This document shows, piece after piece, positions 24,309-31,648 of a stretch of DNA of 37,100 nucleotides. This DNA comes from a virus (lineage: Duplodnaviria > Heunggongvirae > Uroviricota > Caudoviricetes). The notes under the pieces were generated by a model. The model was given only the letters and a program-made list of their open reading frames with translations, was not told the DNA's origin and did no database searches. The stretch lies in IMG/VR virus record IMGVR_UViG_2718218139_000003; one strand, given 5' to 3'. Each line of letters opens with the position of its first letter. Positions within the stretch are counted from its first letter, which is position 1. Both the position numbers and the translations under genes were made by a program.

Positions 24309-24325
24309 TGGGGCTGTCCTTTTTA
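24297..24325. terminator. Bidirectional rho-independent terminator shared by Q and the convergent 174-aa gene
   Basis: acagcccc-gtgat-ggggctgt stem flanked by A6 upstream and T5 downstream; Q stop codon lies in the loop. Confidence 0.65.
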
Positions 24326-24847
24326 CCAGAGTTGAACCATTTTCTGGGTGCCGTCAGGCTTGAGATTATCAATTTCAGAGAGAACGTAATATTGAATGGC
24401 TTCACAAACGGTGGTGTATGGTGACTTACCTTCTTTAAGTGGCACGATATTATTATTAACGCGAACCTGTATTTCATCGTTATACATTGCGATCGAAAGA
24501 GGAGTATGCACGAAGGCGACTTCGCCAGGTGTGTCGTCAACCACTGTCTCAATGCTGAAAATCAGTTTTCGCTCATCATTGCCGCCCCTTGCTTTGGGGG
24601 TAGCGGCAGGAATCTGAGATAAAGGCATTCTACGAAACCCTTCAGTTGTTTCCAGTCCGCATGAAACGTAATGCTGGCGATTACCGTCGCTATCCGTCCA
24701 TGTCTGTGATGGCAGCTCCAGAGAGATTTCATAAGCATCAACAATTCCCTGGGCAATGCGTACAAGTGGGGTCAGGTCTTCATTGCGGCGAAAACTCTCC
24801 TTTACCTGATCTCGTTTTTCTCGTAACTGCTTGTAATTAATGACCAT
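24323..24847 (-). CDS. Hypothetical protein, 174 aa (start at MVINYKQ with RBS ggagg)
   Basis: Clean ORF with good RBS; no family recognised by eye. Confidence 0.55.
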   Translation of the reverse strand: MVINYKQLREKRDQVKESFRRNEDLTPLVRIAQGIVDAYEISLELPSQTWTDSDGNRQHYVSCGLETTEGFRRMPLSQIPAATPKARGGNDERKLIFSIETVVDDTPGEVAFVHTPLSIAMYNDEIQVRVNNNIVPLKEGKSPYTTVCEAIQYYVLSEIDNLKPDGTQKMVQLW

Positions 24848-25406
24848 AAAACAGCCTCCATTGATTTCTTTGCTCGTATTTTGCACTTATGAAGTGTGGT
24901 CGGCAAGGTGCCGCATCACTGACGCGCTTCGCTTGTCTGCTGCTTCGCCGGGGCATAAAAAATTTATGCCCCGGCTCTCCAGCTCCTGTATCAATCAGAT
25001 AATTTCACGACGCCTTCCAGTTTATCGCCACCATCGACGGTCAGACTCTTACGCAATCCCACCGCGTTGACTGTATGTTCTCGCTGCCTCAGTGCGATTT
25101 TGACGGCCTTACCTTTCACCCCATCAAATCAAAAGCCCTCACGCCTTTTTCATGCTCAGCGTGAGAAATATGGCCATTCTGTTGTGTCTCTGCGACATCG
25201 TTCAGGGAATGCTATTTACCCCCTGAAACGCGGGCTGTTCCCCCGTCACCTGCGCGCAGAAAAAACGCGTTTTTTTGTGCACGCACGGATCCTTGACGGA
25301 TCCAGCCGCCACGCGGGCCGGAAGGGCAAAAATTCGTTCAAAAAAATTGTGCAAATTTGTGCACTATTGTGCATTGAAATAAACGCTCTGGAGGAGGGCG
25401 TTTTAC

Positions 25407-25814
25407 TTATCTTTTATAGCCTTGCCCCTTCCTGGCCAGCGCCCTGATGGCCGGGCGTGCCAACACCATATTTTGGCAATGATGAATTGCCCGGCAAAAT
25501 TCATCTCTACCCATTGGATGCTCAACTGGCAACGTTAAATACAGGTTCCATGCGTCGCCTAAAAGTTGGGCTATCTTTTGTTCTTCAGATGTCAGCAAGC
25601 AAGCGGTATCCGTAAAATAATCATACTTTTCATGTATGTTATTTAACGGTTTTGTCTGTAGTGCAGCCTGAGCTATACGGTATGCCTGAAGCATACTGGC
25701 GTCGTTGATATCCATTCCGAACGGAATTTCTGATGATTGTGACTCTGCATCTTCAAGCCTGGCAATTTCTTTACGTAAGAAGTATTTCAACTCTTGTTTC
25801 TGTTTTCTGTTCAT
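25407..25814 (-). CDS. Hypothetical protein, 135 aa, translationally coupled (4-bp overlap) to the upstream zinc-ribbon gene
   Basis: ORF with ATGA-type overlap; no recognised motif. Confidence 0.5.
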
Positions 25815-26143
25815 GCGTTTTTTTCCTTTTTGTCTGTCACTTCTTTCCTGATAATTTCATTGCACAAATCCACGCACTCATTGCAGATGTAAACAGACGG
25901 TCCGGCAATCACCTTTGTGACTTCGTACTGGGATTTATTGCAGAAACTGCAATAAACCGTCTTCTCGCCTGAAGTCCATGTTTTGCTGGTTTCGCCAGAC
26001 ATCAGTTGTTTGAGGTCTTTTTCACGACGAAGAACTATCTGGCCACATTCAGCTATTTTTTGGATGTTGACATTTTCTTCTTTCGCCAGCGCTTCCATCC
26101 GCTCAATCAGTCGCTGCGCTTTTTCTCTGTCAATGTGTTGCAT
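25811..26143 (-). CDS. Small protein with a C-terminal ClpX-type C4 zinc-binding domain (ZBD-like) fused to an unrelated helical N-terminus
   Basis: Residues about 63-100 [40 protein letters not shown] nearly match the ClpX N-terminal zinc-binding domain as I recall it ([39 protein letters not shown]); strong RBS aaggggga. Confidence 0.7.
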
Positions 26144-26206
26144 TGTGTCCCCCTTGTTTATGCTCCCGGGTTAAAGTCATCAGGGCGGATGCGCCCTGAT
26201 GTTGTG

Positions 26207-26518
26207 TTATTCGGGAAATAACGCCCGGATATTTCCGGCCATCTGACTGGTTATCTGTGCGGCTGATACTGGCTGTGACGCGGGGCGTTCTGTCCTGGTT
26301 TGTGTCACTGATAACGCCTCATCATCAGCCCATGCAGCCAGTCGGTAAGCCTCTGCCGGATTCATTTTCAGTAGTGCCAGCCCGGCCAGAAAAGCCACGC
26401 GTTGGCCGCTTTTGCGGGCTTCTGGTGTAAGGCTGTCCAGCCAGGCGCATGCTTCGCCTTCGTTCTTGACGGCGGCGGGCTTCAGATAGAAACTTATCCG
26501 TCTGGTTGGTGTCGGCAT
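26207..26518 (-). CDS. ParR/StbB-like centromere-binding adaptor (103 aa)
   Basis: RISFYLKP...LDSLTPEARKSGQRVAFLAGLALL...IRALFPE parallels plasmid R1 ParR as I recall it; start 4 nt after the ParM-like stop with RBS aggag. Confidence 0.6.
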   Translation of the reverse strand: MPTPTRRISFYLKPAAVKNEGEACAWLDSLTPEARKSGQRVAFLAGLALLKMNPAEAYRLAAWADDEALSVTQTRTERPASQPVSAAQITSQMAGNIRALFPE

Positions 26519-26522
26519 TGGT

Positions 26523-27482
26523 TTACTCCTTGTCCATTGCGTACAGCCCATTAACCAGAGCAAACTGTGGCACCCCGTCCGCGATGAAAGTCGCATTAAC
26601 TCCGCAGGCTTCGCGGATAGCGGGTGCCACAATCTCCGCTCCGCCACCGACAACCATCACCCGCCCGTAACCCGAAAAACCCGCCAGCGCGCGGATCACG
26701 CGTTGTTTCAGTGTTTCTTCCTTTTCACGAATAACCGCCATCAGGCTGGCGTAATGCGCGTCATTGTGGATGTGCTGGCGCAGCCAGGCTTCATCATGGC
26801 GATGTTCGATAATGGTATTGGCGATGTGGTGACTGGTACGCATACCGTTAGTGGCCATCACCGACAGTACGGCATCGGCCATCAGGGAAACGCCTACGTG
26901 TGGATCGCAAAACACCTGGCTGATACCTGCCAGTTGTCCCTGAACCTTTGCCACATCCAGCGTGGTTCCGCCCAAATCCACAATCAGCAGGGATTCAAAC
27001 GGACTCATGTCAGCCAGTGCCTTAAAGCCAGCCGGAATGGATTCAGGCATAACCCGTACATTACGGATAGTGAATGCCTTACCGTTCTGGTACTCCACCG
27101 GGCGCATGACGTTCGCTTTTTTGCGGTTGATGTTGGCCATGTCCGGCTGTGCGTTTGTGTCGAAATACTCGCTCAGTGGCAGGGTGACAACCACATCCAC
27201 TTCCTGTGGTGTGATGCCTGATTTGACCAGCGCGTGATGAATGGCAATTACATTCACATCGCTGTACTGGTATTGCGTGTCGGTCGTCTGGACAAAGCGA
27301 TCGCTGATCGGATCAAAACCATAGCGCACGCCATCAAGCATGTAGTTCGCAGGCTGTGAGCCACCGAACGGCGCAGACCATTCCGACTTGAAGCTGTTCG
27401 GGCTGATGGCGTTGCGGCGTTCGCCGTTCTCAGTCCATGCCAGCTTGATGTTGGTGGAGCCGTCGTCGATACAAATTTTCAT
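26523..27482 (-). CDS. ParM/StbA-like actin-family segregation ATPase (319 aa)
   Basis: N-terminus MKICIDDGSTNIKLAW and downstream ISPNSFK, FDPIS, YSDVNVIAIHHAL...EVDVVVTLPL blocks parallel plasmid R1 ParM (MLVFIDDGSTNIKLQW...). Confidence 0.75.
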   Translation of the reverse strand: MKICIDDGSTNIKLAWTENGERRNAISPNSFKSEWSAPFGGSQPANYMLDGVRYGFDPISDRFVQTTDTQYQYSDVNVIAIHHALVKSGITPQEVDVVVTLPLSEYFDTNAQPDMANINRKKANVMRPVEYQNGKAFTIRNVRVMPESIPAGFKALADMSPFESLLIVDLGGTTLDVAKVQGQLAGISQVFCDPHVGVSLMADAVLSVMATNGMRTSHHIANTIIEHRHDEAWLRQHIHNDAHYASLMAVIREKEETLKQRVIRALAGFSGYGRVMVVGGGAEIVAPAIREACGVNATFIADGVPQFALVNGLYAMDKE

Positions 27483-27512: not shown

Positions 27513-27626
27513 GTTTACGGGATTCTGAAATCCCGTTTTTGCCTGTTTTGTGCGCGCTTCATATATCGCTGCGCGTTTTTTGCTCATTTACGGGATTCGT
27601 GAGTCCCGTTTCTGTCTGTTTTTTGT
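27513..27626. repeat. Two about 41-bp direct repeats (27513-27553 and 27586-27626), each with the inverted repeat ACGGGA-N8-TCCCGT; candidate parC-like centromere/operator
   Basis: Seen directly; located immediately upstream of the ParM-like gene. Confidence 0.5.
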
Positions 27627-28023
27627 TTCCACTGGTCAGGCCACCCCGCAGCAGGTCTGCTTTGCGGCGGGCGCGTTCAGTGGTTTCACTGATTCTCTGT
27701 GCGTGCTCTGCGTCGCGGATGGCGCGCAGCATGTCAGAAAGCACGGTAACGGGTGTTTTCATGGTGTTCTGGTCCTGCTGAAGTGTGGATGCCAGGCGTG
27801 CGGCGGCTTCGGGGTCTGATGCCCCCAGCTGTTCCAGATAGCTGGCGACAGGGTTATGGCGGATCTCCGTGCTGCTTACGCCGTGATTACGGCTCAGGCG
27901 TTGCCAGAGCTGCGTGATTCGGCTGTCCGGGCGGGTATCCGGTTTGCGTACAATTTCAAATCCCTGCGGTGCAATGATGCTGCCGTCAACGTACAGACTG
28001 CCGCCCCGTAACAGGTGCAGCAT
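27559..28023 (-). CDS. Hypothetical protein, 154 aa; 3' end overlaps the second direct repeat, so the true extent is uncertain
   Basis: ORF only; weak RBS; low-complexity C-terminus. Confidence 0.3.
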   Translation of the reverse strand: MLHLLRGGSLYVDGSIIAPQGFEIVRKPDTRPDSRITQLWQRLSRNHGVSSTEIRHNPVASYLEQLGASDPEAAARLASTLQQDQNTMKTPVTVLSDMLRAIRDAEHAQRISETTERARRKADLLRGGLTSGNKKQTETGLTNPVNEQKTRSDI

Positions 28024-28083
28024 CTGCTGTTCACCAATATGTAGGCCGAGAGATTCAGCAGACTCCCGCCATTCTTTAGCGAG

Positions 28084-28268
28084 TCACTCGTGGTTATCAG
28101 GCAAAGGTCGCGGCTGTTTGCGGCTCTGTGTCCAGTTCTGCATTTCATCACTGTTGTTTTTTGCCTGTTTGTCACGCAGCGAACGCATCAGCGCCCGGCG
28201 TTCGTGCCGTTTCAGTGAGTGCAGCCATTCGTTCACTTCAACACCGTCAGGGATCTGCGGCCACGGTG
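28084..28268 (-). pseudogene. A: Replication initiation protein A, C-terminal 61 codons separated from the rest by the IS600 insertion
   Basis: Frame joins in-frame to 29533-31648 when the IS and one copy of GTG are removed. Confidence 0.7.
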
Positions 28269-28332
28269 TGAGGTAGCCTGAGTTTAACGGACACTCCTTC
28301 CTGAAATAGAATGGCATCAGAAGGAGCTAATA

Positions 28333-28635
28333 ATGAGCAGAAAAACCCAACGTTACTCTAAAGAGTTCAAAGCCGAAGCTGTCAGAACGGTTCTTGAAAA
28401 TCAACTTTCGATCAGTGAAGGCGCTTCCCGATTATCTCTTCCTGAAGGCACTTTAGGACAATGGGTTACCGCCGCCAGAAAAGGGCTCGGTACTCCTGGT
28501 TCCCGCACGGTGGCTGAACTGGAATCTGAAATTCTGCAACTGCGTAAGGCGTTAAATGAAGCTCGCCTTGAGCGAGATATATTAAAAAAAGCAACAGCGT
28601 ATTTTGCACAGGAGTCGCTGAAAAATACGCGTTAA
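28333..28635 (+). CDS. IS600-like transposase OrfA; A AAA AAA -1 frameshift site at 28584-28590
   Basis: Identical protein to 4384-4686. Confidence 0.8.
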   Translation: MSRKTQRYSKEFKAEAVRTVLENQLSISEGASRLSLPEGTLGQWVTAARKGLGTPGSRTVAELESEILQLRKALNEARLERDILKKATAYFAQESLKNTR

Positions 28636-28670
28636 TCGAACAATGGCGACAACAATTTCCCATTGAAGCG

Positions 28671-29489
28671 ATGTGTCAGGTATTTGGTGTATCCAGGAGC
28701 GGTTATTACAACTGGGTACAGCATGAACCCTCAGACAGAAAACAAAGTGATGAGCGGCTAAAACTGGAGATTAAGGTGGCACATATCCGCACTCGCGAAA
28801 CATATGGAACCCGGCGGCTCCAGACGGAGCTGGCAGAGAATGGCATCATCGTTGGTCGTGACCGACTGGCACGTCTTCGTAAGGAGCTAAGGCTACGCTG
28901 TAAGCAGAAACGCAAGTTCAGAGCGACTACGAACTCGAACCACAATCTGCCAGTTGCGCCAAATCTGCTGAACCAGACGTTCGCTCCTACAGCACCAAAT
29001 CAGGTCTGGGTGGCGGACCTGACGTATGTTGCCACACAGGAGGGATGGTTGTACCTCGCTGGCATCAAAGATGTTTATACGTGCGAAATTGTCGGCTACG
29101 CCATGGGAGAGCGCATGACAAAAGAGCTGACAGGTAAAGCCCTGTTTATGGCGCTCAGGAGCCAGCGCCCACCTGCCGGGCTAATCCACCACTCTGATCG
29201 AGGTTCACAGTACTGCGCATACGATTACCGGGTCATACAGGAGCAGTTTGGTCTGAAAACATCAATGTCGCGTAAAGGTAACTGTTACGACAACGCTCCG
29301 ATGGAAAGCTTCTGGGGAACGCTGAAAAATGAGAGCCTGAGCCACTATCGTTTTAATAACCGGGATGAAGCCATCTCAGTAATACGGGAATACATTGAGA
29401 TTTTCTACAATCGTCAGCGTCGTCACTCTCGTCTGGGGAATATCTCCCCGGCAGCCTTCAGGGAAAAATATCATCAGATGGCTGCTTAA
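28671..29489 (+). CDS. IS600-like transposase OrfB
   Basis: Identical protein to 3530-4348; frame open from 28572, overlapping orfA in -1 frame. Confidence 0.8.
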   Translation: MCQVFGVSRSGYYNWVQHEPSDRKQSDERLKLEIKVAHIRTRETYGTRRLQTELAENGIIVGRDRLARLRKELRLRCKQKRKFRATTNSNHNLPVAPNLLNQTFAPTAPNQVWVADLTYVATQEGWLYLAGIKDVYTCEIVGYAMGERMTKELTGKALFMALRSQRPPAGLIHHSDRGSQYCAYDYRVIQEQFGLKTSMSRKGNCYDNAPMESFWGTLKNESLSHYRFNNRDEAISVIREYIEIFYNRQRRHSRLGNISPAAFREKYHQMAA

Positions 29490-29532
29490 AAAAAGAACAA
29501 ATGGTAGTGTCCGCTATTGCCAGTACACCTCA

Positions 29533-31648
29533 GTGCTGGCCGTTCTTCCGGCTGTTCTGTCCCGTTGTTGTCCGTTTCCTGTACACGAGGACAGTTATTG
29601 CCACGAGTCCAAGGGGCGGCAGGGCCGCCCTGAAGGTCAAAACCATTTTCGCGGGCGCTGTCTTCCACTTCCGGTTTACGTCTTACCAGCTTCCAGTTAT
29701 CCGGATGCGTGCACACACGGGAGGATTCCCCGATGAATGGCGACCAGATCCCGTAAATCTGTACACTCTGTTCGCCGTAATCGTTCAGCTCATCTGCGAG
29801 GTCGTAGGCGGTGCGAATCAGGTAGTCCTTGCGCGGAACAAGTACGCCACCCTGTTTTTCAATGTAGGTGGCAAAACATCCGGCATCAGCGGCAGCGAGT
29901 ACCGCATCCATTGCGTCATCCTTCAGCCGTTGCGGGCCTTCCGGGTTGCGTGCCATCTGGCTGGCAAGGCGGCGGAGTTCACGCCACACCTGACGGGAGG
30001 GGATGCCAAAGAACTGGAACTGGCGGACCCGGTGAAGGCGCGCCCAGCCGATGGCGCGCTCCACACTCTCGGCCATTGATTTACCTGTTTCGTGTTCAAC
30101 GCGTGGCTTGCCCGTTTTCGGGTCGATGCCATCCACGGCACGGCTGTCCAGGTTTTTCCCTATGTAGGTGGCGATGTAGCTGGTCGGTGTGCCTTTTGAG
30201 CCGTCGACGTACTCCGCCTTAAAGCGTGGGGTAATATCATCACCCAGCTCGTGACGATCTTCCTGAATGGCAATATCGCGGGTGTGGGACACAATGGTGT
30301 CGATTTCTTCCGGATGTGCAAAGACCATCATATGCCAGTGCACGGTGCCGTCATGGTGAGGCTCCACCGTGCGGATGCCATACCAGCGCAGGCCGTCGCG
30401 GTTCAGTTTCTTGCGGACCGCCGCAAAAAACGTGTTAACCAGGTAATCACTGGAGTCGCGCATGGTGGCCCCGTTCCATTTGGGATTCGGATGACCGTTC
30501 TCTGTTGTGGCGTGGTATTTTGACGGGCAGGTGACAGTCAGAAACACCGCTCTGTCGCCACGGGCTTCGGCCAGAAGTTCCAGCCCCTTCATGGTGGCCA
30601 TCATTTCTGCCTTACGGTGAACCGGGTTACTTACTCCCGCGTAATACACCGTTTCGAGATCAATCGTGAACCCATCTTCATTTTCCAGCATGAAACTTTT
30701 CAGGAAATCGCGTGTTTTCTCGCGCTGTGCGCGAAACTCGCTTAACGCGTCCTGGCTCAGATAGGGTGATGTTTTTCTGGAAACCAGACAGGCGGCGCGG
30801 AGTTGTTCTTCTCTCCACTCGCAACGTAACAGCCACAGTTTGCGTTTCCACCATTCCGCACAGGTCAGGCGAAGGATTGCGCCCGGCAGCAGCTCCGTGT
30901 CCGGTTCGTTCCTCCGGTCTTTGTCTGTTGTCAGTGCGTCATAATGCGGAGGCATGGCGTGCAGGTGTAACGCCATGCGGGCCAGCATTTGATACGCCTT
31001 CAGCGTTACATCCATGGTCAGCTCGCCATCAGTCGCGCCAAAGCCATCGCAGAGTTTTTCGAAGGTGCTGCTGAACATCGCCGCCGTCATGGTGGCCAGC
31101 GTCTGTATCTGGTGCTTGTTGAGCTGCGGCAGGTAAAGCAAATCGTCCAGGCGTTCGCGTCCGGCAAGGGAGCGATAACCCGGTGTCAGCCAGCGGTGGT
31201 CGGTGCGGTCCAGACGTTCGAATATTTTGCGCAGGGTTCCGCGCGCGTAGCGTTCAGCCTGCCAGCTCTTTTTGCCTTTCCGGCGATCGGCTTCCTGTTT
31301 TTTGCGCAGGAAGGAGAGGTGGCGAATAAGCGGATCGCGCAGATAGGACGGCAGCAGGCGCAGCGAGGCCATGGCTTCATCCACCGCACCGCGTGCCTGT
31401 TTTCTGGCGTCTCCTGCCAGTGTGATGGTTTTGTCCTGTTTTTCCTGTGCGTCCAGGCTTTTATTAATCAGGTTGCCCAGCGGCGTGGCGGAGAATGCCG
31501 CATCAGCCATTTCCTGGCGGCGCTCGTTCTCTGCCCGGTAGGCATCCAGCCAGGAGGAAAGCGCGGATTCAGGAGCGGGGATCCCCGTTCCTTCACGCCC
31601 CACTGCGTGGCGCGGTTGTTGCCAGTCCCTGATGTACTCTGCCGTCAT
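29533..31648 (-). pseudogene. A: Rolling-circle replication initiation protein (P2 gpA-like), N-terminal 705 codons; interrupted near the 3' end by IS600
   Basis: HUH-type motif HDGTVHWHMMVF; size about 766 aa when rejoined with 28084-28268. Confidence 0.75.

Follow-up and report, generated by a model that had tools for sequence, protein, structure and literature searches.

A ClpX-type zinc-binding domain joined to a private helical hairpin in P2-like prophages and D6-like phage-plasmids: a possible decoy for host ClpX

What use might a phage make of a piece of the host unfoldase ClpX? The question is raised by a small gene in the IMG/VR record IMGVR_UViG_2718218139_000003, a stretch of 37,100 nt (the window) that constitutes a P88-like (Xuanwuvirus, Peduoviridae) prophage of the P2 type. 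The gene encodes a 110 aa protein in which a domain resembling the zinc-binding domain (ZBD) at the N-terminus of ClpX is preceded by an N-terminus of a different kind, and it overlaps a downstream gene for a 135 aa protein. An earlier note, made from the nucleotide sequence of the window, had seen here a recent capture of the 5′ end of host clpX and a two-gene module. What was already on record is a domain name given by the annotation pipeline PGAP and a listing in a supplementary table (PMC9122126); the gene is otherwise uncharacterised, and our literature search found no study of a phage-encoded ClpX ZBD protein and no solved structure of one.

Both open reading frames (ORFs) described in the earlier note are present on the minus strand (Table 1), and a good ribosome-binding site (AAGGGGGACACA) precedes the ATG of the ZBD gene. 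Residues 64–99 of its product match the Pfam family PF06689 (zf-C4_ClpX) with an E-value of 6.8e-18, scoring 64.7 bits where the gathering threshold is 27. A phmmer search of the PDB finds the E. coli ClpX ZBD (1ovx) at an E-value of 6.9e-20; the ClpX proteins of Listeria and Neisseria score far lower than that of E. coli. Counted residue by residue, the core (YCSFC...RKEV) is identical to ClpX of E. coli K-12 (NC_000913) at 31 of 39 positions (79 %), and the similarity of residues 64–102 to ClpX is far beyond chance. The cysteines at positions 65, 68, 87 and 90 form a CxxC-x18-CxxC pattern that aligns with the ClpX ligands, and all four are invariant in 27 distinct family sequences; in the same set F67, the counterpart of ClpX F16, is invariant and I97, the counterpart of ClpX I46, is nearly so. 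All ten diverse members that were scanned match zf-C4_ClpX, with no other zinc-finger family matched consistently. The protein is not a ClpX, since the AAA+ module is missing; TIGR00382, the clpX equivalog model of NCBIfam, gives 51 bits against a cutoff of 370.75 and is matched over model positions 6–54 only.

An AlphaFold (AF2) model of the 110 aa protein, built from 14 sequences, represents residues 61–109 as a β-hairpin followed by a helix at a predicted local distance difference test (pLDDT) score of 73–84. Foldseek places this part of the model on the ClpX ZBD crystal structures 2ds5, 2ds6 and 2ds8 with a root mean square deviation (rmsd) of 0.7–1.2 Å and target TM-scores of 0.86–0.89; with 1ovx included the ranges widen to 0.7–1.5 Å and 0.75–0.89. 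The zinc-ribbon β-hairpin and C-terminal helix that define PF06689 are thus both predicted, and the phage ZBD would be expected to bind zinc and to dimerise. Much of the earlier description therefore stands: a standalone, phage-borne ClpX-ZBD-like protein with a novel N-terminus, four cysteines that model as a zinc ribbon, and a similarity to host ClpX that survives pairwise alignment. The near-match itself is real, although it occupies residues 64–102 and not, as had been supposed, the extreme C-terminal 38 residues.

The remainder of the protein is its own. Neither residues 1–60 nor the 8-residue tail shows any relation to ClpX, as the earlier note had also recognized, and profile searches with the N-terminal domain give no Pfam or PDB match. 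When residues 1–62 were compared by phmmer with 1.84 billion representative sequences only 12 hits were obtained, 10 of them family members or fragments thereof; the other two are a 78 aa fragment sharing the N-terminal residues and a repetitive 1212 aa protein that looks spurious, and no hit leads to another characterised family. The predicted helical hairpin has no detectable relatives outside the ZBD-protein family. It is joined to the ZBD by a linker in which the family alignment has indels of up to about 20 residues, and P2-like and D6-like members all share this layout of hairpin, variable linker and ZBD.

Full-length relatives are few and enterobacterial. Those of E. coli and E. albertii are 86–95 % identical to the window protein, a 109 aa form is 69 % identical, and more distant members include P0016 (54 %) and a Salmonella form, P0019 (44 %), together with two divergent full-length members (P0158 and P0162) that emerged from the N-domain-only scan of the 1.84 billion representatives. 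Of 5426 complete E. coli genomes, 112 (about 2 %) carry the gene, among them UTI89 and ST131 strains, and in these genomes PGAP names the product 'ClpX C4-type zinc finger protein'. In IMG/VR, 358 stretches encode ZBD relatives, and about 50 of the 80 loci examined belong to the hairpin-ZBD family. Older records, including those of P88 (KP063541/NC_026014) and D6 (NC_050154) and many NCBI proteins, name family members 'carboxylate--amine ligase', and in such records the neighbouring parR and parM genes are mis-annotated as 'recombinase'.

The genomic settings show the ZBD gene to be accessory cargo, carried in the gpA–gpQ hotspot of P2-like prophages and in the accessory region of D6-like phage-plasmids. 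The gpA–gpQ interval is a published variable and defence hotspot of P2, and loci of the ZBD gene are known to gather host-interaction and defence cargo (Rousset et al. 2022, PMC9122126). In distant P2-like members the gene lies between gpA and either Q or ogr, with no parMR. A second clade (about 50 % identity, 107–121 aa) comprises phage D6 and D6-like (P1-related) phage-plasmids, in which the gene lies between ref and ppp among accessory genes of the Ead/Ea22 type; we had at first taken this clade to be lambdoid, an assignment replaced after a match in a phage database. Isolated phages with the gene include P88, PhiR44_2 and D6. In the window it follows parM and parR, and here two Xuanwuviruses that do not have it, P88_4B11 and Citrobacter phage Shae_phiSM, are informative: their homology to the window starts at position 26181, within a perfect hairpin between parR and the ZBD gene, and in both phages parMR is followed by different cargo. 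This hairpin, whose coding strand has no U-tract, is the border between a conserved parMR block and variable cargo; the ZBD gene is therefore hotspot cargo and not a member of the partition module. The parM and parR genes are context, outside the conserved neighbourhood of the ZBD family, and do not stand beside its distant members. The supplementary table noted above lists, in the part available to us, arrangements such as 'StbA + Plasmid_stab_B + zf-C4_ClpX + hypothetical...', including WP_001163782, the RefSeq accession of the gene in E. coli 2014EL-1345-2, whose DNA is 100 % identical to that of the window gene. In that part of the table 'ClpX' occurs 43 times and 'StbA' 489 times, so that a minority of the ParM-carrying loci represented there have the ZBD gene; the main text of that paper does not mention ClpX, the domain label being confined to the supplementary tables (PMC9122126).

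Toxin-antitoxin-type cargo recurrently adjoins the ZBD gene in other prophages, including Phd/Doc, HicA, and a protein of the XF1762 family accompanied by a small neighbour (Table 1). P1 Phd is a substrate of ClpXP. ClpX-type ZBDs also occur in other protein contexts (L072, L089–L092; L077–L096; P0049, P0098), namely at the C-terminus of 303–309 aa viral proteins, in several viral proteins of 77–183 aa, and in a widespread 136 aa form of actinobacterial type whose ZBD lies at the N-terminus and which has an additional domain at the C-terminus. Sigma-factor fusions carry them too. The proteins of phrog_12435 and phrog_5259 and the 136 aa actinobacterial-type proteins have the ZBD in common with the 110 aa protein; they differ in having no N-terminal hairpin and fall outside the hairpin-ZBD family. 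Standalone ZBDs may be a recurrent theme.

Was the domain taken from the host recently, as had been suggested? The nucleotide sequences contradict this. The 117 nt core has only 68 % nucleotide identity to E. coli clpX, third codon positions agree at 16 of 39 sites, and 19 of the 31 identical residues are specified by a different codon (serine, for example, by AGT rather than TCT). Six other family genes (P88, E. coli 1190 and four divergent members) are similarly placed, with 65–75 % nucleotide and 36–49 % third-position identity to clpX and 29–34 of 39 ZBD residues identical to ClpX. Between family members synonymous sites are saturated, and ZBD identity is 62–82 % as against 26–60 % for the hairpin. 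The ratio of non-synonymous to synonymous substitution rates (dN/dS) is 0.13–0.37 for the ZBD and 0.16–0.31, where measurable, for the hairpin. The codon-level divergence from clpX and the saturation within the family show the fusion to be old, with both of its domains under purifying selection. In each lineage examined the ZBD is 74–87 % identical to ClpX, and it has been kept near the enterobacterial ClpX sequence; since synonymous sites have been randomised and the N-domain has drifted, selection acts on a ClpX-like surface and not just on the zinc knuckle.

What that surface might be for is suggested by work on ClpX itself. The ClpX ZBD dimer is a docking platform for SspB, RssB and substrates that include lambda-O, MuA and FtsZ, and is dispensable for recognition of the ssrA tag (PMC5415555; PMC7804408). 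F16 and I46 line a hydrophobic pocket at which lambda-O, trigger factor, SspB and RssB dock (PMC7804408). When the ZBD is removed from ClpX, sigma-S and lambda-O are not degraded and ssrA-tagged substrates still are (PMC7226468; PMC7804408), and purified ClpX ZBD supplied in trans inhibits RssB-mediated breakdown of sigma-S by ClpXP in vitro (PMC7226468). We tentatively favour, at a little under an even chance, a role for the phage protein as a trans-acting decoy of the ClpX N-domain that would act on ClpXP-controlled proteolysis. It would fold into a ClpX-like ZBD, probably a homodimer, retaining a hydrophobic docking pocket of the F16/I46 type, and would compete in trans for docking proteins with host ClpX6, which has three ZBD dimers. 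It would titrate RssB and SspB, both of them adaptors, along with substrates that depend on the ZBD, lambda-O-type initiators and MuA among them. N-domain-dependent proteolysis by ClpXP would be selectively slowed, with degradation of the ssrA type, in which recognition is at the pore, unaffected. The protein that benefits could be an antitoxin, sigma-S, or one of the phage's own replication or early proteins. The hairpin might contribute avidity, dimer stability or a second contact, and the co-directional placement with replication and early genes would fit a role early in host takeover. The 79 % identity of the ZBD, its superposition below 1.2 Å in the predicted model, the conserved F67/I97 pocket and the purifying selection are all consistent with such a decoy. 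The same idea of a decoy or competitor in the earlier note is mechanistically reasonable, given the published inhibition by ZBD in vitro (PMC7226468).

The phage protein is like the ClpX ZBD in its domain family, predicted fold, cysteine spacing and F16/I46-equivalent residues; it differs in having no AAA+ module, in carrying its ZBD at the C-terminal rather than the N-terminal side, behind a private hairpin and linker, and in being encoded by temperate phages. Lambda RexB and T4 PinA are phage modulators of host AAA+ proteases. The adaptor-like protein for ClpCP of phage SPO1 is likewise a phage-encoded means of redirecting or inhibiting energy-dependent proteolysis of the host (PMC6873191), but neither it nor RexB nor PinA is known to copy the protease's own recognition domain. 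The decoy model has the same logic as ClpC2 of M. tuberculosis. That protein, a partial homologue of the ClpC1 N-domain that stands alone, buffers the full unfoldase by binding whatever the latter binds (PMC10030653). ClpC2 has the ClpC N-domain fold rather than a zinc ribbon and is chromosomal and non-viral, and its function has been shown by experiment, whereas that of the phage ZBD is inferred. The anti-adaptors IraD, IraM and IraP are small proteins that stabilise sigma-S by occupying RssB, the same step at which a free ZBD would act, and IraD and the ClpX ZBD have been proposed to have an overlapping site on RssB (PMC7226468). The Ira proteins are, however, unrelated in sequence and fold. 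They act on RssB specifically; the effect of a ZBD decoy would extend to every client that docks on the ZBD.

Several points weigh against the decoy. The model is drawn entirely from sequence, fold prediction and published work on ClpX. Free ZBD was needed at 5–20 µM against 0.6 µM ClpXP in vitro (PMC7226468), and competition as weak as this means that a pure decoy would need high expression or extra avidity. The N-terminal hairpin, conserved and under purifying selection, is left unexplained by a simple decoy. In the D6-like clade the ZBD surface is partly changed (VDLC to VKDC, GPSVY to GDNVF), so that some ClpX-like contacts would be lost. The gene is dispensable for persistence of the prophage, being deleted in AVS0530-type prophages and confined to a minority of ParM-carrying loci. 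Finally, our inspection of the locus found no convincing promoter for the ZBD gene.

An unlikely alternative is re-use of a ClpX-type zinc ribbon, without any connection to ClpXP, as a generic module for interaction or for binding nucleic acid, for instance in a small early-gene regulator or in a partition or replication accessory factor. It would sit well with the commonness of zf-C4_ClpX domains that stand alone or in different fusions (the 136 aa, 303–309 aa and sigma-factor forms described above), and with the position of the gene after parMR in Xuanwuvirus and after gpA elsewhere, except that ParMR is missing from most of the family's contexts. A helical hairpin, a C4 finger and a C-terminal helix also loosely recall DksA/TraR; the disordered, length-variable linker that parts the hairpin from the ZBD is unlike DksA, however, and none of the members scanned hits zf-dskA_traR or a DNA-binding family, even with the cutoff relaxed to E<=1. 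A regulator of the DksA/TraR type was rejected on these grounds, there being no DksA/TraR structure among the fold and profile hits either. Moreover, a mere scaffold need not stay 74–87 % identical to enterobacterial ClpX, F16/I46 pocket included, while the N-domains fall to 26–60 %.

Decidedly unlikely, in our view, is an adaptor that plugs into the protease, the phage ZBD forming heterodimers with the ClpX ZBD or the hairpin docking on ClpX, tethering the ligand of the hairpin to ClpXP, which would then degrade or remodel a selected protein of the host or of a rival phage. The layout of binding domain, flexible linker and docking module is that of SspB-type tethering adaptors, purifying selection on the N-domain suggests a specific ligand, and mixed dimers are conceivable with a ZBD core almost identical to that of ClpX, hydrophobic positions included; the adaptor-like protein for ClpCP of SPO1 is a precedent (PMC6873191). 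Yet exchange between stable ClpX ZBD dimers and a free homodimer may be slow, and the hairpin has no detectable relatives. The ClpX ZBD dimers are said, by Wojtyra and colleagues in 2003, to be very stable. Stated in full, as a viral module that grafts a phage-chosen binding domain onto ClpX, either by exchange of its ClpX-like ZBD into the ClpX ZBD dimers or by docking of the hairpin on the ring, the proposal seems to us quite improbable; if true, it would be a new viral route to reprogramming an AAA+ protease, by copying its dimerisation and docking domain.

The remaining question is that of the downstream gene. Its ATG does overlap the stop codon of the ZBD gene by 4 bp, as the earlier note observed, and the ZBD gene is followed by this overlapping MNRKQKQ gene in 17 of 30 Xuanwuvirus-type IMG/VR loci, with a frameshifted version in 2 and none in 11. 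The product has no Pfam, NCBIfam or PDB match, and its AF2 model is all-helical with a pLDDT of 56. It is a mosaic: the N-module is joined to at least four unrelated C-modules in different prophages, and the window-type C-module occurs also as a standalone protein of 76–86 aa in Hafnia, Enterobacter, Pectobacterium and Yersinia and, in proteins labelled DUF551, follows another leader, which ends in ASLEAKP. These mosaics (P0121–P0155) suggest a recombination-prone linker common to phage accessory proteins. The PHROG of the C-module, phrog_13916, is labelled 'DNA ligase' with no visible basis.

Each of the two genes also occurs alone. Among the complete E. coli genomes the ZBD gene is found in 112, the N-module in 161 and the window-type C-module in 112; in about 50–60 of them a downstream N-module is present with no ZBD gene. 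In AVS0530 (L012) a clean deletion between short AAAAAG repeats has removed the ZBD ORF; the 135 aa gene is intact, and an 11-codon remnant still overlaps it. Conversely, in E. coli 1190 (L009) a 111 aa variant of the ZBD gene has no co-directional neighbour and is faced by a Phd/Doc pair, loci L004–L008, L013 and L099 likewise have no neighbour of the 135 aa type, and in other P2-like members the ZBD gene is followed by HicA, by a helix-turn-helix protein or by nothing. In the D6-like clade the same 4 bp overlap is made by a different gene (MKFSKFSELV..., 184–310 aa), for which Pfam gives no significant match; recurrence of this overlap with unrelated genes reflects tight operon packing rather than partnership. 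The 135 aa gene is a facultative neighbour and not an obligate partner, so that the overlap noted earlier stands and the two-gene module drawn from it does not. A toxin-antitoxin or defence pair composed of the two proteins, favoured by the 4 bp ATGA overlap, by the company of the N-module in those 17 loci (19 with the frameshifted ones) and in most complete E. coli genomes sampled, and by a locus that is a known hotspot for defence and toxin-antitoxin genes, is largely refuted by this distribution, by the exchange of the C-terminal half, by the distant ZBD members with no such neighbour and by PADLOC, which returned nothing for the ZBD protein and only a spurious 0.012 partial match (RT_UG36) for the 135 aa protein, and we regard it as very improbable indeed.

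The surrounding genes run on the minus strand in the order gpA, parM, parR, ZBD gene and 135 aa gene, beyond which lie about 500 bp with small ORFs, a 187 aa ORF, and then the plus-strand portal gene Q. The conserved 187 aa ORF is present in PhiR44_2 and many E. coli loci and absent from P88. The gpA gene is interrupted by an IS3-family element, an identical copy of which lies elsewhere in the window in inverted orientation, and because of this interruption the prophage is probably defective. We note the presence of a plasmid-type partition pair, ParM/ParR (StbA/StbB-like), within an integrating P2-like prophage; about one quarter of P2-like phages carry such a pair (Rousset et al. 2022, PMC9122126). 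Two similar hairpins on either side of the gpA stop, upstream of parM, could be a parC-like centromere, an operator or a terminator. A search for the P2 cos sequence gave no match.

Table 1. Positions of the ZBD gene, its domains and surrounding features (window coordinates unless another locus is named)
Feature	Position	Strand	Remarks
ZBD gene	25811-26143	-	110 aa, ATG start; PHROG phrog_6797, full-length match 2.1e-58
N-domain, residues 1-50	25994-26143	-	Predicted helical hairpin, H6-23 and H27-48; AF2 pLDDT 85-96
Flexible linker, residues 51-60	25964-25993	-	pLDDT <50; length varies in family
ZBD core, residues 64-102	25838-25954	-	C4 zinc ribbon and helix (predicted); Cys65, 68, 87, 90
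Downstream gene	25407-25814	-	135 aa; ATG overlaps ZBD stop by 4 bp (ATGA, 25811-25814)
N-module of 135 aa protein, aa 1-56	25647-25814	-	MNRKQKQ...AALQxKP
C-module of 135 aa protein, ~aa 63-135	25410-25628	-	Swappable
Terminator-like hairpin	25381-25403	-	Directly 3′ of 135 aa gene; z=-4.25
187 aa ORF	24323-24886		phrog_5091, conserved; abuts portal gene
Perfect 10-bp-stem hairpin	26178-26201	-	Between parR and ZBD gene; -23.6 kcal/mol, z=-3.9
parR/StbB-like	26207-26518	-	Pfam Plasmid_stab_B 3.9e-24
parM	26523-27482	-	Pfam StbA_N 4.5e-82, ParM_N 1.3e-68
8-bp-stem hairpin	27517-27536		ACGGGATTC..GAAATCCCGT
8-bp-stem hairpin	27590-27609		ACGGGATTCGTGAGTCCCGT
gpA pieces	~27559-28268 and 29533-31648		Split by IS3-family element
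IS3-family element	28269-29532		1264 bp, orfA 100 aa and orfB 272 aa; inside gpA
Second IS3-family element	3487-4750		Identical to 28269-29532 copy, inverted orientation
Toxin-antitoxin-type neighbours in other loci	L009 2579-3330; L075/L076 5405-5680; L010 2696-3187; L002 3361-3852		

If the 110 aa protein does act as a decoy, or by hijacking ClpXP, it would apparently be the first case in which a phage copies the domain of a host AAA+ unfoldase at which substrates and adaptors dock. Temperate phages would thereby have a simple means of controlling ClpXP proteolysis that depends on the N-domain, namely that of sigma-S, of substrates delivered by SspB, of replication initiators and Mu-type transposases, and of some antitoxins. 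The question lends itself to direct test, because P88, PhiR44_2 and D6, which carry the gene, are isolated phages. A positive answer would supply a function for a gene that is present in about 2 % of complete E. coli genomes and is partly mis-annotated as 'carboxylate--amine ligase', and the protein could then be used as a natural tool to tell ClpX recognition that depends on the N-domain from recognition at the pore.

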